A stretch of 64,000 bases of DNA from Escherichia phage vB_EcoM_G53. The notes beneath the pieces were generated by a model, which was not told where the DNA came from, made no database searches, and saw only the letters and a program-made list of their open reading frames with translations. Of the stretch, positions 1 to 41,478 are shown in pieces (the stretch's first letter is position 1; every line of letters begins with the position of its first letter). A program made the position numbers and the translations under genes. The DNA is taken from the sequence record MK327943.1; one strand, 5' to 3'.

Positions 1-2214
1 TTATTTGGCCGCTTCCACGGCCTTCATGAATTTAACGATTTGAGCGACCTGTTCTTTGGAAAGAGTACCACGTCGTCCCATGTAGTCTGACACAATATGA
101 TAATTGGTTTCGAATTCAATAACCATTTTATCATCATTATCGTAAGCATTATCTTTAAGCTTATCGAAAATTTTAGCACACAATTCTAACTTCTTATTCA
201 GGTCTGTATTAGTAGCACCTGCGAATCGATTCCATCCCCAACGATTATTTACTGTTGAGAGTTTTGCAAAGTCTTTACTGATTTCTTTGTTCTTAGAGCT
301 AAAATACTTACTAAGGAAGTTAAGCTCTTCATTACGAGTAATATGATTCAAATAAGGCTGTGCTCTACGACTTGGTGATACATACTCATCATAATCCACT
401 TTATCGATTAGCGTAATATAGTCATTAATTGATTTTTCGAACAAGCATTCTACTTCACCAAGTTTACGAGCTTTCTTAGCAATCTGTGGACGAACTACAG
501 TGAACTCTTTAATACCTGACAAATCAGCAATACGGGTCAAGAAATTGGAGTCATAGTTCAACCAACCTTTATCTGCGTCAAGACATTCAGCATTAGAACG
601 ATTACGAACTATAGCATAACCTTGGATTTCATCAGCTTCACTCGCTGGAATAAAGAGATCTTCTGATACCCAAACATCGTTTTCATTCTTAAAGAACCGA
701 TGAGCACTCGGGGATTTAGGACGAGGCCCATTAGAACGAGTCTTGACTTCAATCCATGGCTTAACGATTTGTAAAAGCTCTGAAGTCTTGTACATGTTAA
801 TGTTGTCGCCATCAAAGATAACTTTAAGACGTTCCAGAAGTTTCATTGCATCTTCGTCTGTAGGGTCAACGAATAGTACGCTTTTACCAAAACCGCGTGG
901 AACTTTACCGGTTAATTTAACCTCGTCTTTAGACATTTCAATTGAATTAAGAGCTCGCATTAATGGAACGCGTCCCTTAACGTCGTCAATAACAATTTCA
1001 ACGTTTTTAATGTTAATGCCAATCAGACTGTTAATTGAAATAGTTGTCGATGAGCTACCACTTTCACGAATACGACGAAGACGAGGGGATTCAACGATAT
1101 CGTATACGACACCAAGATTACACCACTCAGGCCCCATTTTAAAACGTTTGTACAACTCAGAATAAGTTAGTTGTTCTTTAGAGTATTTCAGTGATTCAAT
1201 ATTAGACCCAGCCTTTTCCATGTATTTACGAGCGGTATAACCAAGAGAATCAATTTCACGGAACACATGACGCGGGTATTTACAATCAATCCATTTCTTA
1301 GAATCTTCAGCGAACAATTTAGCATCGATTTCTGCAACGCGTTTATGGATATTTGCTACTGTACGTTTATCAAATGACAATGCTTCACGAGACGGGGCTA
1401 CATCTAGTTCGCCCATAGGGAATTTAATATAAGCTGTAGTGCATCGCGTCATCATCCATGTTTGTTCTTTAATAACACTTCCGATTGGATATACAATACC
1501 ACCATAAACAGCCATGATATTACCACGTTCACCCCATGGAGCTTCCTTGGCCAAATATACATCGTCAAATTCAGGAAAGTATTTAATATCTTTAACACCA
1601 CGAACTTCTGCAATATCACCTAGAGGACGCATAACATATGCAATTTCAGATGCGAACTTTTCAAAATCTTCTGGGTTAACAGGCACAACTACTTCAACGC
1701 CGGTCCGGTCATCAGGTCCCATCTTATCTACGAAGGTTGGCTTAATCTGTGGACCCGTGTCATCTTGGTAGATTACGTAACCACGAACTTCACCGTTGTG
1801 ATAAGACGTAAGGTTAAACGTATCAGTATATGCTAGTGGAGCTTTAGAGCCGAGTCCGAATCCACCAATGAAATCGTTACTCGATGTTTTAGTTGAAGCA
1901 AAATATGAGTTATAGATTCCTGGCTCTTCGTCATTACCTCGAATGGTGAAATCGCTCATACCAGGACCAAAGTCTCGAACTACAAAACGTGGGTCTAAAC
2001 GACCTGGAGCCTGAACAATAAACTTATCGGTGCAACCATTAAGAATTTGTCCATCGATACAGTTTGTGATTAATTCACGTACACAAGCCAATTCTTTGTT
2101 TGTATAAAGGTCATTAGATAAAATCTTATAAACTTTGCTATTGCCTTGAATAGTGAATGCTGTGCTCTTACCACCTGAACCAATAATCGTTTCTTTAGCC
2201 GTTTCAATAATCAT
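1..2214 (-). CDS. rIIA: rIIA protein (lysis inhibition / membrane integrity protector), GHKL ATPase-like N-terminus
   Basis: 737-aa ORF with stop at 1..3; GHKL-type motifs (ELITNCIDG, DFGPGM, GGFGLGSK); position next to gene 39 as in T4. Confidence 0.8.
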   Translation of the reverse strand: MIIETAKETIIGSGGKSTAFTIQGNSKVYKILSNDLYTNKELACVRELITNCIDGQILNGCTDKFIVQAPGRLDPRFVVRDFGPGMSDFTIRGNDEEPGIYNSYFASTKTSSNDFIGGFGLGSKAPLAYTDTFNLTSYHNGEVRGYVIYQDDTGPQIKPTFVDKMGPDDRTGVEVVVPVNPEDFEKFASEIAYVMRPLGDIAEVRGVKDIKYFPEFDDVYLAKEAPWGERGNIMAVYGGIVYPIGSVIKEQTWMMTRCTTAYIKFPMGELDVAPSREALSFDKRTVANIHKRVAEIDAKLFAEDSKKWIDCKYPRHVFREIDSLGYTARKYMEKAGSNIESLKYSKEQLTYSELYKRFKMGPEWCNLGVVYDIVESPRLRRIRESGSSSTTISINSLIGINIKNVEIVIDDVKGRVPLMRALNSIEMSKDEVKLTGKVPRGFGKSVLFVDPTDEDAMKLLERLKVIFDGDNINMYKTSELLQIVKPWIEVKTRSNGPRPKSPSAHRFFKNENDVWVSEDLFIPASEADEIQGYAIVRNRSNAECLDADKGWLNYDSNFLTRIADLSGIKEFTVVRPQIAKKARKLGEVECLFEKSINDYITLIDKVDYDEYVSPSRRAQPYLNHITRNEELNFLSKYFSSKNKEISKDFAKLSTVNNRWGWNRFAGATNTDLNKKLELCAKIFDKLKDNAYDNDDKMVIEFETNYHIVSDYMGRRGTLSKEQVAQIVKFMKAVEAAK

Positions 2215-2226
2215 ATTTTTCTCTCA

Positions 2227-2427
2227 TCACAAGTTACGTTTAAAAATTTCTGCTACTTCAAGAAGTTCTTCTTTAGTAGCTGTATCGGTTTGTATTTTAT
2301 ATCGAATTTCTTTAAAGCGTTCTTTAAAGGACTCTGCTGATTCGATATCAAAAAATCTTTGGATAAGCCGGAATTCCCGGAGCACTGCTTTATCAAAAAG
2401 TTCCAAGTCCACGTTATATGTTCTCAT
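2227..2427 (-). CDS. small hypothetical protein at the rIIA.1 position
   Basis: 66-aa ORF directly upstream of rIIA on the same strand. Confidence 0.4.
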   Translation of the reverse strand: MRTYNVDLELFDKAVLREFRLIQRFFDIESAESFKERFKEIRYKIQTDTATKEELLEVAEIFKRNL

Positions 2428-2519
2428 AATATTCTCTTCAGTAGATTCCTAGGGCACTATTACTAAAGACCATATAATCTATCATCTTATGTGTAATAGT
2501 GCCTCAGGCTATTCAGGAT

Positions 2520-3620
2520 TTACGCTGTGAAGATTTTATCCCACATCGCAACAACTGCATCTCGATTATACTTCTTCCATACTGCTTCAGCACGTTTAAC
2601 TCGAGCTTCGTATGTGTCAGTGAATTCTAATACAGCTTTTGTGTAAAGCGCAACTACTTCTTTCTTAGGAGTAGAGGAATCAATTTCTACACGCACAGTA
2701 TCCGGGTCGTATTCGAATGTCGCATGAGGATAATCCTTAAAAACTAACTGGATTACAGGGACACCTTTAGAGATGGCTTCAATAGAACTATTCTCTACCG
2801 TACCTGTGTCAGGACACGTATTAATAAGTGCTTTAGCCGTTTTAAGACGTTCCATGATTTCACTGTGTGGAGCATCAATAATAACAGGATATTTAGCTGG
2901 TGGTGCCCATTTGCTTGGACAGTATCCTGCACCATTTTCGCCTAGTGCTTTAATCGCTTCAAGAGCAACATCAGTACGACGCATTTTAGTGTCATAACGT
3001 TGTGCACTAATAATCAAATCCGTCGCCGGAAGAACTTCAGGTTTCTCATTCAAACAAATAACCGGATAATCTTCGGCTTCAAACAACGGATTTGCTCGCC
3101 AATAATCATAATCAATTTTGTCAGTCAGACCTGAAGTCATATAACAATATTTGCGTTCAAATTCACGGAAGGCTTTAGTAGGAGCATAACTCTTACCACC
3201 ATTCTTATGAATTTGAATAGTCTGGTCCCAAATTTGAACAATGCCACGAGATACCGGTTCAAATGGTGTTGCCATAAAATTCTTATGAACTTTAGAGAGA
3301 CCTGCGTCTTTAATTGCCTGAACGGTTAGTTTAGTCGGTTCCATAGTAACAACAAAATCGTATTCATGGATGCCGGCTAGTTCAACAATCTTACGAGCCA
3401 TAGTATAACTCATACCTAGACTGAATTTTGTCAGATGACCAACAGGATGATGATTAACCTTCCAATCACCAAACGTGTCATTGTCAAAACCGATATAATC
3501 AATATCAGCACCGATGGACACAAGATATTTCAACACATTTAAATGTACCGCTTCAAGACCACCTTGTACACGTTCTGGGTTAAATGGGACTGCACGAGAT
3601 GGGATAAACATAACTTTCAT
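2520..3620 (-). CDS. GT-B fold glycosyltransferase, candidate DNA 5-hmC glycosyl(arabinosyl)transferase
   Basis: 366-aa ORF; C-terminal GT4-like E-x7-EA-x3-G-x-PVI signature (TGTVENSSIEAISKGVPVI); sits where T4 carries gene 60/mobA. Confidence 0.55.
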   Translation of the reverse strand: MKVMFIPSRAVPFNPERVQGGLEAVHLNVLKYLVSIGADIDYIGFDNDTFGDWKVNHHPVGHLTKFSLGMSYTMARKIVELAGIHEYDFVVTMEPTKLTVQAIKDAGLSKVHKNFMATPFEPVSRGIVQIWDQTIQIHKNGGKSYAPTKAFREFERKYCYMTSGLTDKIDYDYWRANPLFEAEDYPVICLNEKPEVLPATDLIISAQRYDTKMRRTDVALEAIKALGENGAGYCPSKWAPPAKYPVIIDAPHSEIMERLKTAKALINTCPDTGTVENSSIEAISKGVPVIQLVFKDYPHATFEYDPDTVRVEIDSSTPKKEVVALYTKAVLEFTDTYEARVKRAEAVWKKYNRDAVVAMWDKIFTA

Positions 3621-3625
3621 AATTA

Positions 3626-3665
3626 AGCCTTATTAAAATTAAAATGAAGCTCCCGAAGGAGCTTA
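3626..3665 (-). terminator. intrinsic terminator-like hairpin (UUCG loop) plus U-rich tract after gene 39
   Basis: minus strand aagctcc-ttcg-ggagctt followed by cattttaattttaat; 5' arm overlaps the gene 39 stop. Confidence 0.45.
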
Positions 3666-5480
3666 GGACATCCATTCTTTACGAAGTTCTGAATCATCAC
3701 CCATCAACATTTCAAAGAGTTCTTTCCAATTTTCAGGAAGTTTAACTACGTCGTACACAGGGTTCTGAATCATTTCACGATATTCTGACTTTTCAAGGGA
3801 GCCTAATCCCTTGATGTATCTAATACTATGCTTAGGCAGTGTATCTTTAACTTCTTCATACTCAGCTACAGTATAAAACCATTTTTGAGTTTTGCCAATT
3901 TGTGCAATAATTACAGGCGTTTTAACAAAGCGAATACGTCCTTGTTCAAACAATTCAGGCCAATTACTAAAGAAAGCAAGCAAAGCCGGATAGATACTTC
4001 CAAGACCGTCGTGATCTGCATCGGTCATAATTGCAATATTATGATAGTTCGTATTCTCTGCCTTTTCACCAAGAATAAGACCTGTGATAGCACAGATATC
4101 AAAGAGCTCTTTGTTCTTCATCATATCAGCATATGACATACCCCAGCTATTCATCACCTTACCGCGTAATGGGAATCCACCGTGTAGTTCACGGTCACGA
4201 ACATCAATGAGATAACCAATTGCCGAATCACCTTCTGTTAAAAACAATGTCGTATCTGCATCTTTACCACATTGGTTAGCTTTAATATGCTTATGAACCT
4301 TAGCTTTAGTTGCCTTTTTAGCTGCTTTAGTTTCTGCAGCCTTTTCTGCTGCCAATTTACGAGCTAATGCTGCTTCAACAATAGGCATAATCAAGGCTTC
4401 GTTTTTAAGAAGCGCCTGAGCAATTTTCTTAGCATCTAATTGGATATGATTACGAATATCACCATACGTTGACGTTAAACGTTCTTTAGTCTGAGAATCA
4501 AAACGCATGTTGCTCATGTCTCTAATAAACATCAACATTGTGAGGCATTCTTTAACACGAGCTTTAGTGACTTCAATACCCTTATATTTCTTTTTAATAC
4601 CCGGTAAAAGATGTTCGCAGATATCGTCCATTACACATTCAACATGATGTCCACCATTTTTAGTATGGATGTTATTCACATAAGTTAAATGACGGAAGCC
4701 ATCTGGTGATGTTGTGAATGCTATAGAGACTTTATCATTTTCTTGAATGATGTTATCTTCACCAAATTGTTTAGCAAATCGTTTAAAATTACCATCAACC
4801 TTTTTACCATTAAATGTGAACTTGATATCAGGATAAACGACTGCCAATGTTTGAAGTCGGTCTAAAGTAATATCTAAATAAATTTGAGATAAATTATGCT
4901 CTTCAAATGAAGAGAAATCAGGAGTGAAGATTACTTTAGTGCCTTTACCTTTAGATTTCTTAGAAGACCATGATTTGTTTTCCATTCCGTTTGAACAGTT
5001 AACAGTGATTTCATTTTCGCCATCTGACGTGATGCCTGTAAACAACGTAGAGAAGATATTAGTTAAACTACTCCCGACGCCGTTCATACCACCAGTCTTG
5101 CGTTCAGAGTCATCACCAAAGTTACCACCGGCCTTTGGAATAGTCCAGGCTGCTACAGGCCCAGGAATTTGTTCACCCGTTTGGTCAGTAACTAAACCTT
5201 GAGGAATACCACGTCCGTTATCTTCCACCAAAACTTGATTATTTTTAATTTGCACATCAATTTTATTTGCAAACTTAAATGATGTACGAATAGCTTCATC
5301 AACCGAGTTGTCAATAATCTCATCGATTAATTTAACCAGACCAGGAACATATTCAACTTGTTGATATTTACCAAACAAAAAACGCTCATGTGCTTCTTTA
5401 GCAGAAGAACCAATATACATACCACTACGTTTCTTAATATGTTCTACATCTGACAATACCTTAATTTCATTTTTAATCAT
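3663..5480 (-). CDS. 39: DNA topoisomerase II large (ATPase, GyrB-like) subunit, unsplit gp39
   Basis: 605-aa ORF; GHKL ATPase and TOPRIM-like motifs (VEDNGRGIP, GGNFGDD); T4 synteny. Confidence 0.85.
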   Translation of the reverse strand: MIKNEIKVLSDVEHIKKRSGMYIGSSAKEAHERFLFGKYQQVEYVPGLVKLIDEIIDNSVDEAIRTSFKFANKIDVQIKNNQVLVEDNGRGIPQGLVTDQTGEQIPGPVAAWTIPKAGGNFGDDSERKTGGMNGVGSSLTNIFSTLFTGITSDGENEITVNCSNGMENKSWSSKKSKGKGTKVIFTPDFSSFEEHNLSQIYLDITLDRLQTLAVVYPDIKFTFNGKKVDGNFKRFAKQFGEDNIIQENDKVSIAFTTSPDGFRHLTYVNNIHTKNGGHHVECVMDDICEHLLPGIKKKYKGIEVTKARVKECLTMLMFIRDMSNMRFDSQTKERLTSTYGDIRNHIQLDAKKIAQALLKNEALIMPIVEAALARKLAAEKAAETKAAKKATKAKVHKHIKANQCGKDADTTLFLTEGDSAIGYLIDVRDRELHGGFPLRGKVMNSWGMSYADMMKNKELFDICAITGLILGEKAENTNYHNIAIMTDADHDGLGSIYPALLAFFSNWPELFEQGRIRFVKTPVIIAQIGKTQKWFYTVAEYEEVKDTLPKHSIRYIKGLGSLEKSEYREMIQNPVYDVVKLPENWKELFEMLMGDDSELRKEWMS

Positions 5481-22309: not shown

Positions 22310-22651
22310 TTAAAAGAATTTAAATTTTTTCTTGGTTCGTTCATTAAAAGCTTGTTGTACTTGCATTGTAACACATTTTTCAACGTGTGGTGCAAGTTCT
22401 GCTTTTCTGTCCTGGTCAAGAACTGCAAAGTCCATTACGATTTTACCATCAACCCAGTCTAGTTTTGTAATATAGACTATATGATGGGAACCGTCTTCAA
22501 GTGTAATCAGAATCTCTTGAATGACATTTTCCATTGCTGAACGGACAATTTTAAGAGATTCATTAAACACTCGTTCTTTGCGAATGTCCTCCCCTTCCGA
22601 AGAAGGGGATTCATCAACGATTTCTAGATTTAAATCATCGAGATTATTCAT
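22310..22651 (-). CDS. gp40-like protein (position-based)
   Basis: ORF between 41 and uvsX, as gene 40 in T4; start placed at the ATG after the uvsX stop. Confidence 0.4.
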   Translation of the reverse strand: MNNLDDLNLEIVDESPSSEGEDIRKERVFNESLKIVRSAMENVIQEILITLEDGSHHIVYITKLDWVDGKIVMDFAVLDQDRKAELAPHVEKCVTMQVQQAFNERTKKKFKFF

Positions 22652-23816
22652 CGAAATCTTCCATTTCGTCAAGGTCGTTTTCTATATCTGCTGCAGATGG
22701 AGCATCAGAAGTTTTAACCGGAACTTTAGTTGTTGCTTTGCAATTAATAAGGTCGTTAACAGCGTCATCAACTTCTTTAATAGAAGAGATAGCACCTAGT
22801 TTATATTTAGTTTCAATTGCATCTCGGAAAGGTTTGTGTTTAAACAAAGGTCCCCAGAATTCTACACAATCAGTAGCTTTAGCACGCCATGATTTTTCTT
22901 CACGAATCATTTCACCTGTTTCTTCGTCAAGGAATTCGCGAGCATACCAACCGGCTTTAGGCTTAACTACAAAACCAATTTCAGTTGCCATTTCTAACAA
23001 GCCACTGAATGGGTCAATACCGCCATCAAAATTAACCGTGATCGGGAAAGTAGATTTCTCTTTAACTGTGCGAGATTTTTCTGCTTTCAACGTGAAGTCA
23101 TAACCGGTCAATTCTGTACCTTCTTTAACCTGACGTTTAGAGATAAAAAACACTGTGTTGGCAGAATAAAGAATACCTGTACCACCGCCCATAATCTCTT
23201 TAGGATACAATCCACCGATTTCCATTGCTGTATGGTTGATTGCAACACATGGAATATCTTTAATAGTCAGATAAGGAGTCACAATGCGGAACAAAGATTT
23301 AAGTGCCTTAGCACGAGACATATCACCTACAACTTTCTCGTTCAACGCATCTTCGGTTTCTTTCTTAGATGCAGTATTACCAATCGAGTCAATAAAGATA
23401 ATAACTTTATCACCACGTTCAATCGCGTCAAGCTGATTAGTCATATCAACTTTAAGTTGTTCGACAGATTGAATCGGAGTATGAACTACACGGTCTAAAT
23501 CAACACCCATCGAACGGAAGTAAGATTCTGAAGCACCGAATTCTGAGTCATAAAACAAACAGATTGCATCTTTATATTTCTTCATATATGCTGCAACCAT
23601 GGTCAGCCCAAACAATGTTTTAAAGTGTTTAGAAGGAGCAGCAAAAATAGTTAAGCCTGATTGCAACCCGGCATTCAGTGCACCACCTAGTGCAATATTC
23701 AACATCGGAATACGAGTAGGGACTTCATCACGATTATTAAACAGCTTAGACTTAGTCAAGTCTGCAGTCATTTTAGAAGTAGAAGCTTTAATCAGACGAG
23801 ATTTTAAATCAGACAT
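22644..23816 (-). CDS. uvsX: UvsX recombinase (RecA-like)
   Basis: 390-aa ORF; N-terminus MSDLKSRLIKASTSK and RecA core match T4 UvsX as I recall it. Confidence 0.9.
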   Translation of the reverse strand: MSDLKSRLIKASTSKMTADLTKSKLFNNRDEVPTRIPMLNIALGGALNAGLQSGLTIFAAPSKHFKTLFGLTMVAAYMKKYKDAICLFYDSEFGASESYFRSMGVDLDRVVHTPIQSVEQLKVDMTNQLDAIERGDKVIIFIDSIGNTASKKETEDALNEKVVGDMSRAKALKSLFRIVTPYLTIKDIPCVAINHTAMEIGGLYPKEIMGGGTGILYSANTVFFISKRQVKEGTELTGYDFTLKAEKSRTVKEKSTFPITVNFDGGIDPFSGLLEMATEIGFVVKPKAGWYAREFLDEETGEMIREEKSWRAKATDCVEFWGPLFKHKPFRDAIETKYKLGAISSIKEVDDAVNDLINCKATTKVPVKTSDAPSAADIENDLDEMEDFDE

Positions 23817-23914: not shown

Positions 23915-24463
23915 TTAACGAGCCCATTTGATAATTTCTGTAATCAAATAATTACGTTCGCTTGCATTAAATCCTATAACTTTGTTAGCACCATCATGAT
24001 TAAGTAATTGATACGTTTGGATTTTGTTATGAATTGCAAACTCTTCAAAATGTGAAATGACTGTATTAAAACCGAATGAAGACAAAGTAATAAGGTCGTC
24101 TTCAAAACTTTCAGTCATTTCGTTACGTGTTAAAATAATTGTGAACACATCATGGTTTTGGCAAAGACGAACATAATCCTGTTCATAAACGTCAAGAACC
24201 GAGTCCGCATCTTGTCGAATACGTCCATAAACCCAGTTACTAATATATCCACGGTCTAACAGATAAATCTTAGTAGGGTCTAAATAATTCAACATCGTTT
24301 CGAAACAACCAACTTCATTTCGAGACTTAACATCGAATCGTCCATCAACTGTTCGTTTAGGGAAATCAATTTTTACATATCTTTCACTAATTTCCATTAT
24401 GTCATTAATGAAAGTTGTTTTACCAGCATTATCCGGGCCATCTACTAAAATAATTTTAGCCAT
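23915..24463 (-). CDS. P-loop nucleotide/nucleoside kinase-like protein
   Basis: 182-aa ORF; Walker A GPDNAGKTT near the N-terminus; sits where T4 carries beta-gt. Confidence 0.45.
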   Translation of the reverse strand: MAKIILVDGPDNAGKTTFINDIMEISERYVKIDFPKRTVDGRFDVKSRNEVGCFETMLNYLDPTKIYLLDRGYISNWVYGRIRQDADSVLDVYEQDYVRLCQNHDVFTIILTRNEMTESFEDDLITLSSFGFNTVISHFEEFAIHNKIQTYQLLNHDGANKVIGFNASERNYLITEIIKWAR

Positions 24464-24464
24464 T

Positions 24465-25364
24465 TTATTCCTCGATTACGACATCTTCATATTTAGGTAT
24501 ATTATACGGTGAAGAAATTAAAGCATTAAAGTAGATGAACTCACCAAGACCTGGATGAAATACTTCTTCAGGATTTTCGAAATATTGAATCTTCGGACGT
24601 CCTTTAAGAATTTGATAGTACTCAGTTTTAGTTGGTTTAAAAATTCGAATCAACGCTTCTTCAGGATACTTATTTCTGTCGAAGCTATTATTTGGATCGG
24701 TTATATAAAGCGGTTGACCTAATTGAATTGCACATTCAACCACTTGTTCAAAACGATAGCATGGGTCACTAATTCGAAATGGATGAAAAATACCATCTAG
24801 ATAAATAGGAGCCAAATCACCTACAAGACGCTGCATGATGGAAGGACGTATAACTTTCTGCGTTACGATAATCTTATTACCATCTGCACCTGCGTTAACC
24901 AGCACTTCTTTTTGACGTTCATTCAACACAGTAGTTTGAAGTGAACGATTAACCGACAACATGTCGGTTTTTAAGAATTCGTCAATATAAAAACGTGGTT
25001 TATTAGGGTCTGCAGTGATATTGAAATTGAATTCCACATCAAAAGCGCCGTCATATCCAGTGATATCTGTGATTAGAAAATCACAATCATAATAAGCAAT
25101 TAATGAATCAACCACAAATTCATTTTCAGACCAGAAATATTTACGAGTGTTATACGCGTTATCTTTATACCATAATGGAACAAACTTAAATTCTGGAAAA
25201 AGACGTTCGCATTCTTTAATATCAGATGCATTACGTGGATATGTAATCACATCACCCGGATTAGCACGGTGCAAATGAAGTTGGAAGTTGCCATCCTTAA
25301 GGATAGCATACTGTCCAGTTTCATAAGACCGCATACTCAAGATAGGTACGCGGAAAATAGCCAT
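24465..25364 (-). CDS. hypothetical protein (in the T4 beta-gt locus)
   Basis: 299-aa ORF tightly packed between the P-loop kinase and the gp42-like gene. Confidence 0.45.
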   Translation of the reverse strand: MAIFRVPILSMRSYETGQYAILKDGNFQLHLHRANPGDVITYPRNASDIKECERLFPEFKFVPLWYKDNAYNTRKYFWSENEFVVDSLIAYYDCDFLITDITGYDGAFDVEFNFNITADPNKPRFYIDEFLKTDMLSVNRSLQTTVLNERQKEVLVNAGADGNKIIVTQKVIRPSIMQRLVGDLAPIYLDGIFHPFRISDPCYRFEQVVECAIQLGQPLYITDPNNSFDRNKYPEEALIRIFKPTKTEYYQILKGRPKIQYFENPEEVFHPGLGEFIYFNALISSPYNIPKYEDVVIEE

Positions 25365-26080
25365 TAGTCAAGGAATCCTTTAACATAATCAAAATCACGT
25401 TCAAACACATGGGCACTTACCATGGTATGAGTATAATCACCAACTTCTACACCACATTCGTTAGCGATATAATGGAGTAATTTTCCTTGGAGATAAAAAT
25501 CCAACTGCATAACAACAGCACAGTTCTGAGAACGCATATGACAGTGGGTATAAAGTTTACCATCACGAATATAATAAGTCACTGAGTCAGTACATGGATA
25601 TTCAAGCGTTTCGTCTGAATCAAGCAAAGCCTGATCAGAACTTTCTAGAATTTGGAACACAACTCTTCGGGAGTTAGGCTTCTCTTTAAGTTCTTTTAGA
25701 AGAGCTGGTAATTGGGCCGCAATGCGAGGACCATAGAAAGTGTTGAAGTTCGCAGGCAAAACATCTGATTTTGGTTTAGAAATAAATTTAGCGACATTAG
25801 GATATGCCTTAAACGCTTCTTCCGCATCAGTACCACCAGAAATCATAAACTTCCAGAAGTCTTCGGCATATTCATAAGAGATGCGGTTAATACGTGGGTC
25901 GGTCATTTTGAATGATGATGGGGTGTCAACAACTACTGTCATAGACCCAATTTCATTACAACGTCCAATACGAGAATCAGTTACGAATTCCGGGTTTTCT
26001 AAAATTTCACGATTGACTGCTTTAAATGCGGCTTGAAAATCTGCGGCTTTGATATATTTCATTGTGTTATGTTTTCCCAT
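25364..26080 (-). CDS. 42: dCMP hydroxymethylase-like (thymidylate synthase superfamily), gp42
   Basis: 238-aa ORF; active-site region PCTDSVTYYIRDGKLYTHCHMRSQN aligns with the T4 gp42 MCTNTVQYLIRD...NMRSND region as I recall it. Confidence 0.65.
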   Translation of the reverse strand: MGKHNTMKYIKAADFQAAFKAVNREILENPEFVTDSRIGRCNEIGSMTVVVDTPSSFKMTDPRINRISYEYAEDFWKFMISGGTDAEEAFKAYPNVAKFISKPKSDVLPANFNTFYGPRIAAQLPALLKELKEKPNSRRVVFQILESSDQALLDSDETLEYPCTDSVTYYIRDGKLYTHCHMRSQNCAVVMQLDFYLQGKLLHYIANECGVEVGDYTHTMVSAHVFERDFDYVKGFLD

Positions 26081-26122: not shown

Positions 26123-26362
26123 TTATTTGAATTTCTTGGCAATGTTGATATAACGTAAAGCTTCACCATCAATACTTCCAAGAACACTATGAAGAAATGT
26201 ATCAGCGTAGTATTCCAATTGAACAGGTTCTTTAATCACTTTAGCCGCTTTGGTTTCAAAAAGGCCCATCAGGGCCTTTTTAAGAATTTGTTCGTTAGTG
26301 TTCAGTTTCGTAGTCAAAATCTCTTCATTAAGTTGGTGGTTAAAAGTTTTTCTAGAAATCAT
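26123..26362 (-). CDS. small hypothetical protein
   Basis: 79-aa ORF. Confidence 0.4.
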   Translation of the reverse strand: MISRKTFNHQLNEEILTTKLNTNEQILKKALMGLFETKAAKVIKEPVQLEYYADTFLHSVLGSIDGEALRYINIAKKFK

Positions 26363-27531
26363 TCCGGGTACCTCAAAGCGTCATCAGAGTTAGTTATATC
26401 AATAATAGATATAGAGTTTTCTGCTAACCCGTTTTTAGATAATTGACGTTTATAATATCTTTCACAATATGTACACGTCGTCCCGCAGATTTCATTAGCA
26501 CAATCGAAATCTGGATGTCTGAACCACCTTTTTTCTAAAAAGCCATCTAACAAAGAGGTTTCAATATTTACTGTATGTGAAAACTCGGTCTCATTTTCAA
26601 GAGTGAAAATAGTCTCTAAAGGCTTCCACAGTTCTAACAAATTACCTTCAAACTTTTCAGAAGCGTATGCTTCAAGAACTTTCAAAATGTAGTCTGTGCT
26701 ACCTGTACGTCCTGAAACTTTGAATTGAGTGATACCAATATCATTATAAAGTTTCAAATCTTGAGGACGAACAAAACGAGTTCTCAACCAGTTAAATGGG
26801 TCTGTATCACGAGCTTTAATACAGTGCTGCATTGGATAACCGTTTAAGGATTTAGCATCATCAGCTGTAACATCAGTACTATGGAAAATATAGCAAGAGT
26901 CACGATAGCTACAATGTGTTGTATACCCTTTACCAGCATTAGAACAGAACTCATTTACAAGAACTTCAAATATTATATTGTTCTTATTGCAAAACTCTGC
27001 TGCACGCTTCAGGAAAGAAACTGAACGGTTCTTATGAATTCCACAACAGACCTTTTTGATATTATATTGGTCGTGCAAGTATTTGATTTGAGTTACAGCA
27101 TCGACATGTAGAATTGTTGAAACTTCAATCTCAATGTCTTTATTGACTTCACGAACAATTTCCATAACAACAGGGTTAGCGATAGTAATACGCCATACGC
27201 CTATTGACCAAAGATACTGAACATAATCCTGAATAGCTTTCTTCTTCCACTCAACTAGTTCTCTTTTTGAACCAGGATTTATCGTGTTGAGTGTATAGTT
27301 AAAGCAAATACCTAATTCGTTACAACGTTTAACGTAATCTTCTAACATCTTTTTGTCAACGTCAGGAAGCCTAAAATCAGGTCTGGCTGCTACAAAAGCC
27401 ATTTCTCTTGTAGAGCCGTATACTTCATTTATCAAGCTATTAGGATAAGTTTTATTGAGCTCTACGATTTTATCAAGAAGAGCTAAATCAAAATTCGTTC
27501 CGATTTTAAAAGTATTCATTTTTTTTTGCAT
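26359..27531 (-). CDS. Cys-rich enzyme-like protein, possible Fe-S / U32-like fold (tentative)
   Basis: 390-aa ORF with clustered cysteines (CSNAGKGYTTHCSYRDSC; CANEICGTTCTYC); no radical-SAM CxxxCxxC. Confidence 0.3.
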   Translation of the reverse strand: MQKKMNTFKIGTNFDLALLDKIVELNKTYPNSLINEVYGSTREMAFVAARPDFRLPDVDKKMLEDYVKRCNELGICFNYTLNTINPGSKRELVEWKKKAIQDYVQYLWSIGVWRITIANPVVMEIVREVNKDIEIEVSTILHVDAVTQIKYLHDQYNIKKVCCGIHKNRSVSFLKRAAEFCNKNNIIFEVLVNEFCSNAGKGYTTHCSYRDSCYIFHSTDVTADDAKSLNGYPMQHCIKARDTDPFNWLRTRFVRPQDLKLYNDIGITQFKVSGRTGSTDYILKVLEAYASEKFEGNLLELWKPLETIFTLENETEFSHTVNIETSLLDGFLEKRWFRHPDFDCANEICGTTCTYCERYYKRQLSKNGLAENSISIIDITNSDDALRYPE

Positions 27532-27578: not shown

Positions 27579-27980
27579 TTATAGATTCGGTTTATATGAT
27601 TTAAATGTTTCGAATTCGCCTTTATTCATAAGAGCTTTGAATTCGTCAGGACGCATAGCTTTGTCGTCGATAATCCAATCATATACTGGTTTATGTGTTA
27701 GCAAATTATGGTACTTCAAACCAATGTTTGCCAAGTTCTGAATCAGACTTGGGAGAATGTCAATTGCTATACGACCAGGACCTACTGACTTCATACCGCG
27801 AGCAGTGTAAAGCGTTATTGTATGCCCTGCATCATACAGGGCATTAATGGCAGACACCATTTCGACGTCTGGTTTGAAGTTCACGTAATCACGATTGTTA
27901 TTCCACTCTGTTATACAATCATCGACATCAAAACAAAGATTAAGCATGTTTTCTACACAGTGCATTAGATTCGTTCCCAT
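27579..27980 (-). CDS. HAD-superfamily phosphatase (small, sugar-phosphate phosphatase-like)
   Basis: 133-aa ORF; HAD motif I FDVDDCI, motif II LYTARG, motif III/IV K...IIDDK. Confidence 0.6.
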   Translation of the reverse strand: MGTNLMHCVENMLNLCFDVDDCITEWNNNRDYVNFKPDVEMVSAINALYDAGHTITLYTARGMKSVGPGRIAIDILPSLIQNLANIGLKYHNLLTHKPVYDWIIDDKAMRPDEFKALMNKGEFETFKSYKPNL

Positions 27981-29650
27981 TGATGAGTGATATCGCCACC
28001 GATTGGACGATAGGAAACACCAGTTTCTTTATCAGTTAGTACCCATTTACCAGGATTTTTTGTAATCAGAGTAGCCGTTACAGGTTCTGCCACGTCATAA
28101 CTAATAGAGCCGTCTTGAAGTACACGGCCCATGTTACGTAATTGCTTAGTCAGAAGTTCCATACCTTTATAATATGCGGCTACCGCTTTAAGTGGATTAT
28201 TCTTGAAATAACCACCTAATGCAATCCAGATAATTGCCACTGCCAAATGATGATACTCGTTAAACGAACTCATCTTTCCATATTTGTAAACTAATGGATT
28301 GATGTTAATAGTCACATTACAAGTTGTTTCATCAATAGTAAACTGCCCCCAGGTCGGATTAGCGTTGAATTCATCATAACCTGAAACAGCATAAAGCACT
28401 TTAGCTTCATCATACAATTTTGGCCCGTAAATCTTGGTTTCGCCAAAATATCCACGAGGGTCGATAAACTTGACTTCGCCGTTATCAGTAATCATAGTAT
28501 TACTGAAGTTCGGGTCACCGTGAATAACAGAGTACTGTCCCTGAGAACGGTTATGATACCGAATAAGGTGTTCTAAAGCTTGTTTCAGCATTGGCTTCAG
28601 ACGTCCAATCTTAGTGTAGTTCACATGTGTGATTTTACCAAATGAATCAATCAATGGTTGAATGCTTTCACAACGATCAATAACTTTCGTATAGAATTCT
28701 TTAGTGAAATCACGACGAACAGTTTCAGGACTTACAAAATAAGTGTCTGTGCTGAATTTCAGTGCATCTAAAATTGCATCAACAATTTGTGGACGAGCAA
28801 GACTTGATTTGGATTTAATATATTCAAATGCCGGCTTACCTTTAATGCGTTCCATTTCAAAGTTATTTTCATTAACAGAAACTAACTGAGGGACTGAATC
28901 TGATTTCACTTTCAAATACCACGAAATCTCATCTTTCTGAAGAGCTCGGCCCTGTTCGGTTAATGCGAATTTAGTTACAGTTTCTTCACCAATTTCAACT
29001 GCATTAAAACTACGATTAAGTTCACGAACTTCATGAGCTTTTTCAAGTTTAGGCATATCACCTAAATCAATTAGATTCATAAGCTCTGATTTATTGAATG
29101 CGCTGCCGTAAAGGAATTCTACGAAATCACGTCCTTTGCAGTATTCATGAATTTCCTCATCAGTAGAACCCATATAGAATTCCCAGTCTTTGAACTGATA
29201 AATTCCTACAACATTACCACCTGTTGAACCTACGTTAGTGATATTTTCACCGTCGAAATTATATCGACATTCGTCACCCTTAACATAGATTGCGTTAACA
29301 TTCCAAGACCATGAACCAAAATCGGGAATAATATCACACCAGTTAACAATTACGTTATGGCCGTCTAAATCTTTGTGTAATTTAGCAAGAGCATAAGCAG
29401 ATCCATACGCTTCATCAACTGTACGAATAGTCACATTGAACCCTTCTTGCTCACAATAAGCTCGAACAGTTTCAGCAAATTTTGAATGAACTACTACAAT
29501 AATTTCATCTGCGCCAAGGTCAGAATAAATTGTATACAAATTGCTCAGAATAGTGTCTTGTTTATAGTTAACAAGCACCTTAGGAATATGATGCGTTATT
29601 GGATACAAACGAGTTGCCAGTCCAGCACCAAGAATAACAGCTTTTTTCAT
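27965..29650 (-). CDS. bifunctional sugar-1-phosphate nucleotidyltransferase (N-term) / sugar kinase (C-term, APH/ChoK-like)
   Basis: 561-aa ORF; N-terminal ILGAGLATRL nucleotidyltransferase motif (LicC/RmlA-like); C-terminal HGDPNFSN...DNGEVKFIDPRGY kinase motifs (LicA/APH-like). Confidence 0.65.
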   Translation of the reverse strand: MKKAVILGAGLATRLYPITHHIPKVLVNYKQDTILSNLYTIYSDLGADEIIVVVHSKFAETVRAYCEQEGFNVTIRTVDEAYGSAYALAKLHKDLDGHNVIVNWCDIIPDFGSWSWNVNAIYVKGDECRYNFDGENITNVGSTGGNVVGIYQFKDWEFYMGSTDEEIHEYCKGRDFVEFLYGSAFNKSELMNLIDLGDMPKLEKAHEVRELNRSFNAVEIGEETVTKFALTEQGRALQKDEISWYLKVKSDSVPQLVSVNENNFEMERIKGKPAFEYIKSKSSLARPQIVDAILDALKFSTDTYFVSPETVRRDFTKEFYTKVIDRCESIQPLIDSFGKITHVNYTKIGRLKPMLKQALEHLIRYHNRSQGQYSVIHGDPNFSNTMITDNGEVKFIDPRGYFGETKIYGPKLYDEAKVLYAVSGYDEFNANPTWGQFTIDETTCNVTININPLVYKYGKMSSFNEYHHLAVAIIWIALGGYFKNNPLKAVAAYYKGMELLTKQLRNMGRVLQDGSISYDVAEPVTATLITKNPGKWVLTDKETGVSYRPIGGDITHQWERI

Positions 29651-29678
29651 GTTGAAGTCCTCATTGGTAAGTAGGAGT

Positions 29679-29704
29679 ATTGTACACTATTCTAGTTAAA
29701 GCAT
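29679..29704 (-). promoter_or_regulatory. middle (MotA-box) promoter candidate for the kinase/nucleotidyltransferase gene
   Basis: minus strand ATGCTTTAA box, 11-nt gap, TACAAT; GAGGA SD before the ATG at 29650. Confidence 0.4.
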
Positions 29705-29836
29705 TCATACTTTGCCTGTAGACCAATCATAATCCATCCAATTACAAGTGTTGGAACCATTACTGGAGCCGTTAAGCTCCAGTAGATAGTCCATGACAAG
29801 CATCAATAGTAAAAGTCCTATTGTTATTGCTTTCAT
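29705..29836 (-). CDS. small hydrophobic peptide (43 aa), not in ORF track
   Basis: ATG overlaps the SIS gene stop as ATGA; MKAITIGLLLLMLVMDYLLEL... Confidence 0.3.
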   Translation of the reverse strand: MKAITIGLLLLMLVMDYLLELNGSSNGSNTCNWMDYDWSTGKV

Positions 29837-30468
29837 TGTTCGCCTCGTAACATGGCACCTAGTGCACCGCCTGGATGGAACTTAAGGAAATCATTAGAGG
29901 TAAATCCACGTTCAGACGAAAGGTTGATAGCAAACGTATCGATAAGCGCTAACAACAATGTAGTGGACATAGTCGGAGCCAGAGAATTCTCATCAACCTC
30001 TACTGCGATGCCTGTACAGAAAGAGTAATCAAAAAGGGCTTCATTTTCTTGTGGAATGTCTGGGTTACAATGCAACAGAATCTGTTTGACGTTCGGTCGA
30101 ATCATTTTAAGATGCTTAGCCACGCCTATCATTTCTTCAGTTTTACCAGAACGACTAATATGAATCAACACATCATTAGGCGCAATGAATCCTGCATCAC
30201 CGTGAGAATAATGCCCAGTGTTCAAGTACATACTCGGGATACCGAGTGAAGCAAATGTCTCAGAAGCTTTAGTTGCAATATTAGCATTCTTACCAACACC
30301 TGTAATAATTACTCGGCTTTCATAATTACTAAGACCCGGGCGTCGAAGAGTTTCTAGAATAGCATTATAACGAGCAGGGTTTTGACTAATTACTTTGGCC
30401 ATAGCGGCCAAAGAAGAAGCTTGTTTTATGATTGCGTCAATAGCGATAGTAATAGGAGTAGTTTTCAT
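29833..30468 (-). CDS. SIS-domain sugar-phosphate isomerase (KdsD/GutQ-type arabinose-5-phosphate isomerase-like, no CBS domains)
   Basis: 211-aa ORF; GVGKNANIATK...HYSHGD...ISRSGKTEE matches KpsF/GutQ SIS motifs. Confidence 0.7.
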   Translation of the reverse strand: MKTTPITIAIDAIIKQASSLAAMAKVISQNPARYNAILETLRRPGLSNYESRVIITGVGKNANIATKASETFASLGIPSMYLNTGHYSHGDAGFIAPNDVLIHISRSGKTEEMIGVAKHLKMIRPNVKQILLHCNPDIPQENEALFDYSFCTGIAVEVDENSLAPTMSTTLLLALIDTFAINLSSERGFTSNDFLKFHPGGALGAMLRGEQ

Positions 30469-38616: not shown

Positions 38617-38845
38617 TACACGCTTCAGCCATTTTAAGAATAGAGCCGGGAGTATCGTTGTCCATTATATTAAAGCTAAATTCAATGGCCCAGTCGGTGC
38701 AGACATGAACTGCTTTAACTTCATTGCCTTCAACGCGTAATGGCTCAATCCAATACTTGATAGTGTTCTCGAATCCATCATCGTCTTTAACGTCCATTTC
38801 AACTTCAAGTCCAAGCCCAGCATTATTAAATTCATCTAAAGTCAT
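38588..38845 (-). CDS. small hypothetical protein
   Basis: 85-aa acidic ORF. Confidence 0.4.
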   Translation of the reverse strand: MTLDEFNNAGLGLEVEMDVKDDDGFENTIKYWIEPLRVEGNEVKAVHVCTDWAIEFSFNIMDNDTPGSILKMAEACIEDAYNDED

Positions 38846-39861
38846 TGTGTTGCCTCAATATAAAGTTCGTTGGAATATTTGACCAGCGCTTCTCTGTCTT
38901 CGTCTGAGATATCTGGAATCGCGTCAATATATTCTTTAATGATATCTTGAAGTGATTTAATCTCGATTTCCTGGTCGTCATCAGATTCAACACTGTTATC
39001 AACTTTAGAAACCATGCGAAGAGAGTGAACTACTTTTTCAAGTTCAGATTCAAACTTAGTCAACTCTGAATCAATTTCTGATACTATAACACGTAAGGCT
39101 AGATTAGTATAATCAGAATAATTGATTTTGCCTTTAAACGGATAAGTGATTCGTCGATGCCATGTTGTTTCATTAGGAATAAATTCCATACGTTCAACAT
39201 CAGTGTCAAATACCCAGAATCCGCGCGGGTCATTCTCATCACCTGCAGTAAGGGTCCATGGTGTCCCAATATATTTGACGTTAGCAGCTTCAGAGATTGT
39301 GTGGAAGTGGCCGGACCAGACTTGTTTATAGGTCTTTAAGAAATCAGGTTCAAGCCCATGAGACTTCATTCCTTTATAGAAATAAAAGCCATTCAGTTCC
39401 CAGTGCCCAACACAATACGCTGCGGAAGAAGTCTTGATGTGCTCTAAGATTTCACCTGTATTTTCTTCACACATCCATGGAACGATATCAATCAGACATC
39501 CGTCAAAATCTACAGTAGTCGGATGCTCGTAAATAGTAAAGTTTTCAAATTGAGTTAACAATTCAGAAACAGTGTTAGGTGTTATTGTATTCTTAAACGC
39601 CATGTCATGGTTTCCTATCGTGACATGAACGTGAATGCCTGCTTTAGAAATCATATCAACGATTTCACGATTGAATTCCATTGTACGATGTGTTATTGCT
39701 TTACGGACGTCAAACCAATCACCGTACTGAATCCAAGTTTTAATCCCGTGTTTCTTAGAGTATTCAATTGCTTGTTGAATACCATCACGTTGAATATCTT
39801 GAACCCATGGGTCGTCTTGTTTGACTCCGATATGGAAGTCGCCTAAGTGCAAAATTTTCAT
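38842..39861 (-). CDS. 47: recombination nuclease subunit gp47 (SbcD/Mre11-like)
   Basis: 339-aa ORF; phosphoesterase motifs LHLGDFH, GNHD, GHWH. Confidence 0.9.
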   Translation of the reverse strand: MKILHLGDFHIGVKQDDPWVQDIQRDGIQQAIEYSKKHGIKTWIQYGDWFDVRKAITHRTMEFNREIVDMISKAGIHVHVTIGNHDMAFKNTITPNTVSELLTQFENFTIYEHPTTVDFDGCLIDIVPWMCEENTGEILEHIKTSSAAYCVGHWELNGFYFYKGMKSHGLEPDFLKTYKQVWSGHFHTISEAANVKYIGTPWTLTAGDENDPRGFWVFDTDVERMEFIPNETTWHRRITYPFKGKINYSDYTNLALRVIVSEIDSELTKFESELEKVVHSLRMVSKVDNSVESDDDQEIEIKSLQDIIKEYIDAIPDISDEDREALVKYSNELYIEATQ

Positions 39862-40649: not shown

Positions 40650-40865
40650 TTATCTCATTAAATTAAAATAAAAACGTCCATCCTCTTCAATACAGAACTC
40701 ATATTCAACTGGAGTCCCGTTTATCGAAAATGACACGTCATGTGGGTTCAAAGGGTCGATGTCAAAATTAATTTTAAATTCACGACCCAACAGTTTTACC
40801 AAATAAGGGATTGCTTCGTCAAAAGGTTCTTCTAAGTAGTTAGAGATGTCAATTGTCATCCTCAT
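40650..40865 (-). CDS. small hypothetical protein (start placed at MRMTID)
   Basis: ORF 40650..40943 trimmed to the ATG near the gene 55 stop. Confidence 0.35.
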
Positions 40866-41406
40866 ATAAAAAATCCAAACTAGGCGAATCGCTAACAACT
40901 TCCTTCTTTTCAGCCCCAGGAGCTTTATAAGCGGATTCTTCATAATGCGTCATTTTATCGTAGATGTCTTGAATAAATGTTTCATCTACCAACGCTACCA
41001 TATCATCGTCATGACTGTCGTAGACATTATGAACGAAGTAACTATATTTCTTTGCAACTTCCTTACGTTCTTTTTTGATACGTTGGACAAAAGCATTAAA
41101 ACAAGCTCGAGTTATGTATGCATGTGGGTTATTGTACTTAGTTTCGTCGAAATTATGAAGTCCCTTAATAGAGGCTTCAATCCCATCTGCAATCATCTCC
41201 TGCTTCCAAGACTGGGTATATCCTGAAAAGTTGAAACGTTTGGACAGGCCTTCGGCGATAAGCATAATTGCTAAACCGATGGTATCATTCTGACGAATAA
41301 TTTTGTTTGGGTCTTTATTATTTAAGAGCTCCTTTTTCCACTCGATTATAGCGGCGAGAAGCTCTTTATTATTCACATAGTTATTTTTAGGTTTTTGTTC
41401 AGTCAT
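40849..41406 (-). CDS. 55: late transcription sigma factor gp55
   Basis: 185 aa from the ATG at 41406 (MTEQKPK...); near-identical to T4 gp55 as I recall it over [39 protein letters not shown]. Confidence 0.9.
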
Positions 41407-41478
41407 AAGTACCTCTTGGCTCAATTCATAGGTCTATTATATCATAATATTTAGAGACCTATCTTAAAGCACGAGATA

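Follow-up and report, generated by a model that had tools for sequence, protein, structure and literature searches.

The window, the whole 64-kb stretch of DNA that was analysed here, comprises the first 64 kb, starting at base 1, of the genome of a Mosigvirus, an RB69-like T-even phage. Near its beginning, on the minus strand, lies a gene for a protein of 366 amino acids. An ORF check places the reading frame at exactly 2520..3620 with an ATG start codon, and it is a real gene. It is the orthologue of RB69 ORF003c, also referred to as gp3, and encodes a soluble, UDP-binding glycosyltransferase of two domains (GT-B, GT4-like) for which we propose a role as the second (beta-1,3) DNA arabinofuranosyltransferase. 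On one side the gene is flanked by rIIA (1..2214) and rIIA.1 (2227..2427). The other flank is formed by the gene for the large subunit of topoisomerase II (3663..5480, minus strand), a protein of 605 amino acids whose C-terminus matches T4 gp60, such that a single ORF spans both T4 gp39 and gp60. This fused gene 39/60 is found without the split, without the 50-nt translational bypass element and without a mobA remnant. In T4 the equivalent interval, from rIIA.1 to gene 39, contains gene 60, 60.1 and the mobA remnant, whereas in the window it contains the glycosyltransferase gene. A preliminary description of this DNA had placed a glycosyltransferase where T4 has gene 60/mobA, which is a fair account, as the gene fills the T4 60/60.1/mobA interval. 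Bases 2000-4000 show 99% identity to Escherichia virus vB_Eco_mar005P1 and 98-99% identity to around 150 other Mosigvirus records.

The 92-nt spacer between the stop codon of the transferase gene and rIIA.1 (2428..2519) folds into a long hairpin in the minus-strand transcript (-28.6 kcal/mol; z = -4.4 relative to shuffled sequences), which has an 11-bp GGCACUAUUAC/GUAAUAGUGCC stem and a structured loop. This hairpin may serve in RNA stability or processing, or act as a terminator that lacks a U-tract. Upstream, a terminator-like GC hairpin (AAGCTCC-TTCG-GGAGCTT; 3647..3664, minus strand) with a T-rich run behind it immediately follows the stop codon of gene 39, 26 nt ahead of the transferase start codon. 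Expression of the transferase may therefore require read-through, or a promoter located within gene 39.

The protein is already known. It is identical to RB69 ORF003c/gp3 (RB69p003, NP_861693.1) at 364 of 366 positions (99.5%), differing by the two conservative substitutions E16D and T327I, and the RB69 gene has identical coordinates (2520..3620, complement strand), the same length and the same neighbours. In phage Bas46 the same gene is bas46_0103, found at the same position within DNA that is 98.5% identical, and the Bas46 record annotates its product as a 'putative hmC-arabinosyltransferase'. Over its full length the protein is 98% identical to the 'phage HY126 glycosyltransferase' of PDB entries 9IQZ (apo) and 9IR0 (with UDP), both released on 2025-07-16, with six substitutions in the printed alignment. 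These structures, which we take to be those of He et al. (Nat Chem Biol, 2026), establish experimentally for this family both the binding of UDP and the GT-B fold, in which two Rossmann-like domains are combined and the nucleotide-sugar site belongs to the C-terminal one. The preliminary description had called the protein a GT-B nucleotide-sugar transferase, and the identities to 9IQZ/9IR0 and to RB69 ORF003c mean that this assignment is correct and also that it was already available. The enzyme was described in 2018, when HMM and HHpred comparisons identified RB69 ORF003c as a likely arabinosyltransferase with a GT-B fold (Thomas et al., PMC6024577); it has since been crystallised, in structures released in 2025, and was placed within a two-transferase pathway in 2026, so that nothing about the protein itself is new here. 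In print it was the 'hmC arabinosyltransferase' in 2018 and had become 'beta-arabinosyltransferase 2 on arabinosyl-5hoC' by 2026.

Structure comparison, which the preliminary description had proposed as a check, returns the GT-B fold, with GT4-type enzymes as the nearest non-phage relatives. Foldseek gives 162 matches at E <= 0.001, and the best 50 of these are nearly all GT-B glycosyltransferases, together with one UDP-GlcNAc 2-epimerase of the same fold. After 9IQZ/9IR0 the next matches are the GT4-type GT-B enzymes PimA (2gej), WaaG and BshA, which are the best non-phage neighbours at 11-14% identity. They share with the phage protein the C-terminal EA-x3-G-x-PV motif and a glycine-rich N-terminal loop (G20 G21). 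In contrast, the phage protein is missing the first glutamate of EX7E and has no match to Pfam Glycos_transf_1, and the acceptor proposed for it is a sugar on DNA, where those of the bacterial enzymes are lipids or small molecules. An AF2 model of the protein has a good C-terminal domain but is poor overall (pLDDT 61), as this tiny family supplied only five homologue clusters for an alignment of six sequences. The assignment of the fold rests on the solved structure 9IQZ/9IR0 and not on this model.

The signature on which the preliminary description had based its family call, E-x7-EA-x3-G-x-PVI, is present in its second part only. The EA-x3-G-x-PVI segment corresponds to residues 281-290 (EAISKGVPVI), but the upstream glutamate is E276, giving E276-x4-E281, and the canonical -8 position is occupied by G273. 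The C-terminal domain thus has no EX7E, and the sole literal E-x7-E in the protein is found at residues 86-94, in its N-terminal half. Within the family G273, E276 and E281 are invariant, and A282-G286 and P288/V289 are invariant or nearly so. Profile searches give little further guidance. The protein has no Pfam match at E <= 1 and no NCBIfam match, and neither set of models places it in GT4 or Glycos_transf_1. PF20706, 'GT4-conflict', matches just two of 13 family members, weakly (best E 0.0028), a profile of the 13 members finds nothing among PDB sequences beyond 9IQZ/9IR0, and an exhaustive search of 1.84 billion proteins brought no bacterial GT4 enzymes into the family. PHROG 8302 matches residues 1-366 at E 9e-223 and is labelled 'unknown function'. 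The family consists of five clusters in a set of 5.8 billion proteins and about 10 in the 1.84-billion representative set. The earlier family call was thus based on a short motif, which by chance gave the right direction.

The window harbors a second GT-B glycosyltransferase. It is a protein of 299 amino acids, encoded at 24465..25364 on the minus strand, in the slot that T4 uses for beta-gt, and it is the orthologue of RB69 gp46:47. The gene lies directly downstream of the gene 42 homologue (25364..26080), and on its other side are found a nucleotide (thymidylate-like) kinase gene (23915..24463, minus strand; phrog_761, 99% identical to RB69p045, the gene for gp45) and uvsX (22644..23816, minus strand). 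We propose that this enzyme is the first, base-proximal arabinosyltransferase. The preliminary description had held that no ORF of the size of alpha-gt or beta-gt is present at either of the T4 positions. Between genes 47 (38842..39861) and 55 (40849..41424) this is so, only ORFs of about 73-107 amino acids being found there, but in the interval from uvsX to gene 42 the 299-aa enzyme contradicts it. Its view of the 366-aa protein as the best candidate for the DNA-modifying transferase has to be revised as well, since a second GT-B enzyme sits in the beta-gt slot and comparative genomics favours the latter as the base-proximal one.

The two transferases are 21 kb apart in the window and have no detectable sequence similarity to each other (BLAST E > 10; hhalign probability 0.4%). 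The 299-aa enzyme is smaller, is far more widely distributed and, in the records examined, is encoded next to the 5-hydroxy-dCMP synthase. A tblastn comparison of T4 alpha-gt and beta-gt with the window returns nothing below E = 1, and the profile of the 366-aa family compared with T4 alpha-GT and with T4 beta-GT gives hhalign probabilities below 1% in each case. The profiles are thin (Neff 2.7), so that relationships among these glycosyltransferases are visible only at the level of the fold, and Thomas et al. likewise reported a relationship of RB69 ORF003c to the T4 families at the HHpred level only (PMC6024577). The genes for the 299-aa enzyme and for a 561-aa protein (27965..29650) are intact single ORFs here, whereas the RB69 reference splits them into p046/p047 and p052/p053, a difference that agrees with the published attribution of the RB69 splits to errors of sequencing.

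The base that is modified in these phages is 5-hydroxycytosine. The gene in the T4 gene 42 position (25364..26080, minus strand; Pfam Thymidylat_synt) encodes a 5-hydroxy-dCMP synthase of the thymidylate synthase family, identical at 236 of 238 positions (99%) to RB69 gp48 (RB69p048) and just 25% identical to T4 gp42, although neighbouring core genes are 67-91% identical to their T4 counterparts. RB69 gp48 has been confirmed experimentally to convert dCMP into 5-hydroxy-dCMP (PMC13326640). RB69 DNA contains beta-D-Araf-(1->3)-alpha-D-Araf-5-hydroxy-2'-deoxycytidine, in which the sugar is linked through O5, as well as the mono-arabinosyl form (PMC13326640), and the DNA of the Mosigvirus phages NP, Bas46 and Bas47 is also di-arabinosylated (PMC13390438; PMC12923530). 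The acceptor is therefore not hmC, because the gene 42 homologue is 99% identical to a 5-hydroxy-dCMP synthase. The hmC-DNA named as acceptor in the preliminary description does not apply to this phage, and the assay on hmC-DNA with UDP-glucose that it proposed would not contain the right acceptor and might not contain the right donor either.

The genes for the sugar donor follow on the same strand. They encode a HAD-like phosphatase of the RB69 gp51/HY126 AfhF type (27579..27980; phrog_1238, 99% identical to RB69p051), which converts Araf-1,5-bisphosphate into Araf-1-phosphate (PMC13326640), and a bifunctional nucleotidyltransferase and sugar kinase of 561 amino acids (27965..29650; Pfam NTP_transferase and weak kinase matches), 99.5-99.7% identical to RB69p052/053. 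The RB69 ORF53_52c/AfhE-like enzyme to which the latter corresponds makes UDP-arabinofuranose (PMC6024577; PMC13326640). A SIS-domain arabinose-5-phosphate isomerase (29833..30468; Pfam SIS, phrog_5670) is 100% identical over 194 amino acids to RB69p055, the gene for gp55. All of the pathway genes, for the 5-hydroxy-dCMP synthase, for UDP-arabinose formation and for the 299-aa transferase, are thus present in the window. The preliminary description had put the 366-aa transferase 25 kb from the sugar-activation genes, and had noted that it is encoded far from the enzymes of donor synthesis; both statements agree with the measured distance of about 24-27 kb between 2520..3620 and the genes at 27579..30468.

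The division of labour between the two transferases was approached through their distribution in 50,697 phage records, with tblastn used for the 366-aa family. The 299-aa family is found in 348 of these records at 351 places, with one place in almost every record, and includes phages of Escherichia, Klebsiella, Serratia, Yersinia, Proteus, Enterobacter, Erwinia, Kosakonia, Acinetobacter and other hosts; among the matches listed it adjoins a ThyA homologue. The 366-aa family is found in 211 of the records, in one copy in Mosigvirus and in two tandem copies in the Acinetobacter Twarogvirinae, where the copies directly adjoin the genes for the kinase, the 299-aa enzyme (GT1) and ThyA. It is restricted to genomes that also carry the 299-aa transferase (Mosigvirus and Acinetobacter phages). 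One record with an organism name beginning 'Tegunavirus' also appears among the tblastn matches to the 366-aa family and could be an exception to this pattern. Dhakavirus JS10 has genes for the ThyA-like enzyme, the 299-aa transferase, the kinase, the HAD phosphatase and the NTP-transferase/kinase, and no homologue of the 366-aa transferase was found in it. At the Mosigvirus transferase position, between rIIA.1 and gene 39, JS10 has 588 bp without an annotated gene (2437..3024), in which tblastn detected no transferase remnant.

The 299-aa family accompanies the synthase in every genus that has the synthase, whereas the 366-aa family is restricted, and this makes the 366-aa enzyme most likely the transferase of the second sugar. 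The number of transferases also matches the number of sugars. Thanatos, which has a single glycosyltransferase, syntenic with gp46:47, has mono-pentosyl DNA (PMC13326640); RB69, NP, Bas46 and Bas47 have two transferases and di-arabinosyl DNA (PMC13326640; PMC13390438; PMC12923530); and DLP3 has three transferases and tri-arabinosyl DNA (PMC13326640). In vitro, DLP3 gp76 and gp77 together with UDP-Araf add a further arabinose to arabinosylated RB69 DNA (PMC13326640). The individual DLP3 transferases are inactive on 5hoC-DNA, and the first step may even take place on the mononucleotide (PMC13326640). Both Lee et al. (2026; PMC13326640) and the Durham Collection paper (PMC13390438) have proposed gp46:47 as the first transferase and the enzyme encoded between rIIA and the topoisomerase gene as the second. 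From the comparison of genomes we likewise consider it probable that the 299-aa enzyme acts next to the base and that the 366-aa enzyme extends the chain on DNA. A deletion of aat in Bas46 is also said to have been made by Mahler et al. (Cell Host Microbe, 2025).

In the pathway that we propose, the ThyA-like enzyme (25364..26080) would replace dCMP by 5-hydroxy-dCMP, while ribulose-5-phosphate would be converted into UDP-D-arabinofuranose by the isomerase, the kinase/uridylyltransferase and the phosphatase (27579..30468). The 299-aa GT-B enzyme (24465..25364) would then link the initial arabinofuranose, in alpha configuration, to the base through O5, and the 366-aa transferase, with UDP-Araf as donor, would add another arabinofuranose at O3 of this sugar. 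This would yield the beta-D-Araf-(1->3)-alpha-D-Araf-5-hydroxycytosine of RB69-type virion DNA, and DNA di-arabinosylated in this way would be shielded from DNA-targeting host defences. For the 366-aa enzyme we infer its action at step 2 rather than step 1, its acceptor, DNA-bound mono-arabinosyl-5hoC, and the linkage that it forms.

Related systems differ in their organization. The products of genes 077 and 078 of the Acinetobacter phage Maestro belong to the same family as the 366-aa transferase (41-43% identity over the full length), and DLP3 gp76/gp77 are encoded at the same syntenic position as this pair. In DLP3 and Maestro two tandem paralogues are found inside the cluster, whereas in Mosigvirus there is one displaced gene, and DLP3 gp76/gp77 attach a third sugar through a beta-1,5 link that is absent from Mosigvirus DNA. 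The Acinetobacter paralogues share 54-56% identity with one another and 42-44% with the Mosigvirus protein, which is the outgroup to both in a neighbor-joining tree. Orthology to one paralogue or the other was considered, and the tree gives no such assignment; function is therefore not transferable by strict orthology. The T4 alpha- and beta-glucosyltransferases and the T2/T6 gentiobiosyl transferase resemble the 366-aa enzyme in having a GT-B fold, a UDP-sugar donor and modified cytosine in phage DNA as their target. The gentiobiosyl transferase, which adds a second sugar, is a functional analogue of a second-sugar transferase. The T4 enzymes differ from the Mosigvirus one in sugar (glucose versus arabinofuranose), in base (5hmC versus 5hoC) and in genome slot, with no detectable sequence homology.

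The reverse assignment, as envisaged by Thomas et al. (2018) and in the preliminary description, would make the 366-aa protein the first, base-proximal transferase on the modified cytosine and the 299-aa enzyme the extender. The 366-aa protein was the sole transferase to emerge from the 2018 HMM searches (PMC6024577), the Bas46 annotation as an hmC-arabinosyltransferase reads the same way, and the crystallisation of its family with UDP may reflect a tractable activity. However, many genera keep the 5hoC/UDP-Ara module with just the 299-aa transferase and no homologue of the 366-aa one, and such phages would be left without a first-step enzyme if the 299-aa protein were an extender. The one transferase of mono-glycosylated Thanatos is, moreover, that syntenic with gp46:47 (PMC13326640), and homologues of the 366-aa enzyme act on DNA that is already arabinosylated. 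We regard this reversal as unlikely.

The separation into two steps might itself be wrong, if the 366-aa transferase worked solely as a partner of the other transferase or of replication proteins within a complex, or if the two enzymes were partly redundant. DLP3 gp76 and gp77 are each inactive alone and active together (PMC13326640), and in the crystal structures the sequence is found in four chains across two entries, the example chain of 9iqz being chain H. Mosigvirus, in contrast, has a single member of the family, so that a pairing of the gp76/gp77 type is not directly applicable, and its two transferases are without detectable sequence similarity and are encoded 21 kb apart, which makes such an arrangement quite improbable to our minds. 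That the enzyme acts not on phage DNA at all but on, say, a glycan of the host envelope or a protein of the phage, we hold to be highly improbable. Such an acceptor would suit the closest structural neighbours, the lipid, LPS and small-molecule transferases PimA, WaaG and BshA, and the position of the gene outside the modification cluster. Yet the family is confined to phages with the 5hoC/UDP-Ara module and is found inside the module in Acinetobacter phages, its copy number varies with how many additional sugars the DNA carries, and its homologues are active on DNA in vitro.

If the 366-aa enzyme is the second transferase, a question of stereochemistry arises. The two enzymes presumably share a pool of UDP-D-arabinofuranose, and the first sugar is alpha and the second beta, so that one transferase should retain and the other invert the configuration. 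GT4-like enzymes are typically retaining, and the product linkage proposed for the 366-aa enzyme is beta. It is conceivable, although we put it forward only tentatively, that this enzyme is an inverting exception among GT4-like proteins that reads a sugar on duplex DNA, and that it represents a portable add-on for going from mono- to di-arabinosylation. Were it inverting, it would depart from the retaining chemistry typical of GT4-like scaffolds, and its placement between rIIA and gene 39, away from the cluster in which its Acinetobacter relatives are found, would mark the portability of the gene. Arabinosylation of DNA protects Mosigvirus and its relatives, many of which are candidates for phage therapy, from restriction enzymes and some CRISPR systems, and which defences are evaded seems to depend on how many sugars are attached. 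A model with a single transferase acting on hmC-DNA, and with no glycosyltransferase near gene 42, is out of date.

Inside the 5-hydroxycytosine cluster, near the hydroxylase gene, the window also contains a gene for a U32-family Fe-S protein of 390 amino acids (26359..27531, minus strand), the orthologue of RB69 gp50, which matches Pfam Peptidase_U32 with 42 bits against a cut-off of 22.4. Homologues are found in 221 phage records, and the protein is much more conserved than the 299-aa transferase, with 82-87% identity between Mosigvirus and phages of Klebsiella, Yersinia, Proteus, Edwardsiella, Erwinia and Shewanella. Ten cysteines are invariant across 121 homologues, including the series C344-x4-C349-x3-C353-x2-C356. 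In 54 records outside Mosigvirus, a small ORF similar to the chorismate mutase of Virsaitis27 adjoins the ThyA-like gene; its position, in the loci inspected (including L009:7158-7502 and L010-L014), is between the U32 and ThyA-like genes. Six of these ORFs were tested, and each proved to be a genuine chorismate mutase of type II, matching Pfam CM_2 above threshold. Prephenate is the product of chorismate mutase. In the window the slot of this enzyme of about 80 amino acids is taken by a 79-aa ORF (26123..26362, minus strand; phrog_8601, RB69p049) that overlaps the U32 stop codon by 4 nt. Its identification as a diverged chorismate mutase was rejected, with no Pfam match and an hhalign probability of 0.07%, and it is either a replacement of the mutase or one that has diverged beyond recognition.

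In E. coli the U32 protein RlhA forms 5-hydroxycytidine in 23S rRNA, a reaction that requires both Fe-S clusters and prephenate (PMC5727448). In Lee et al. the phage U32 protein is listed only as a 'sugar or heterocycle reductase' and is not discussed in the text (PMC13326640), and we found no discussion of an O2-independent route to 5-hydroxycytosine in the accessible phage papers. The ThyA-like synthase uses O2. By analogy with RlhA, the presence of a U32 protein and a chorismate mutase beside the gene for this O2-using hydroxylase suggests that there may be a prephenate-dependent, O2-independent route to 5-hydroxycytosine, which would serve these phages in anoxic hosts.
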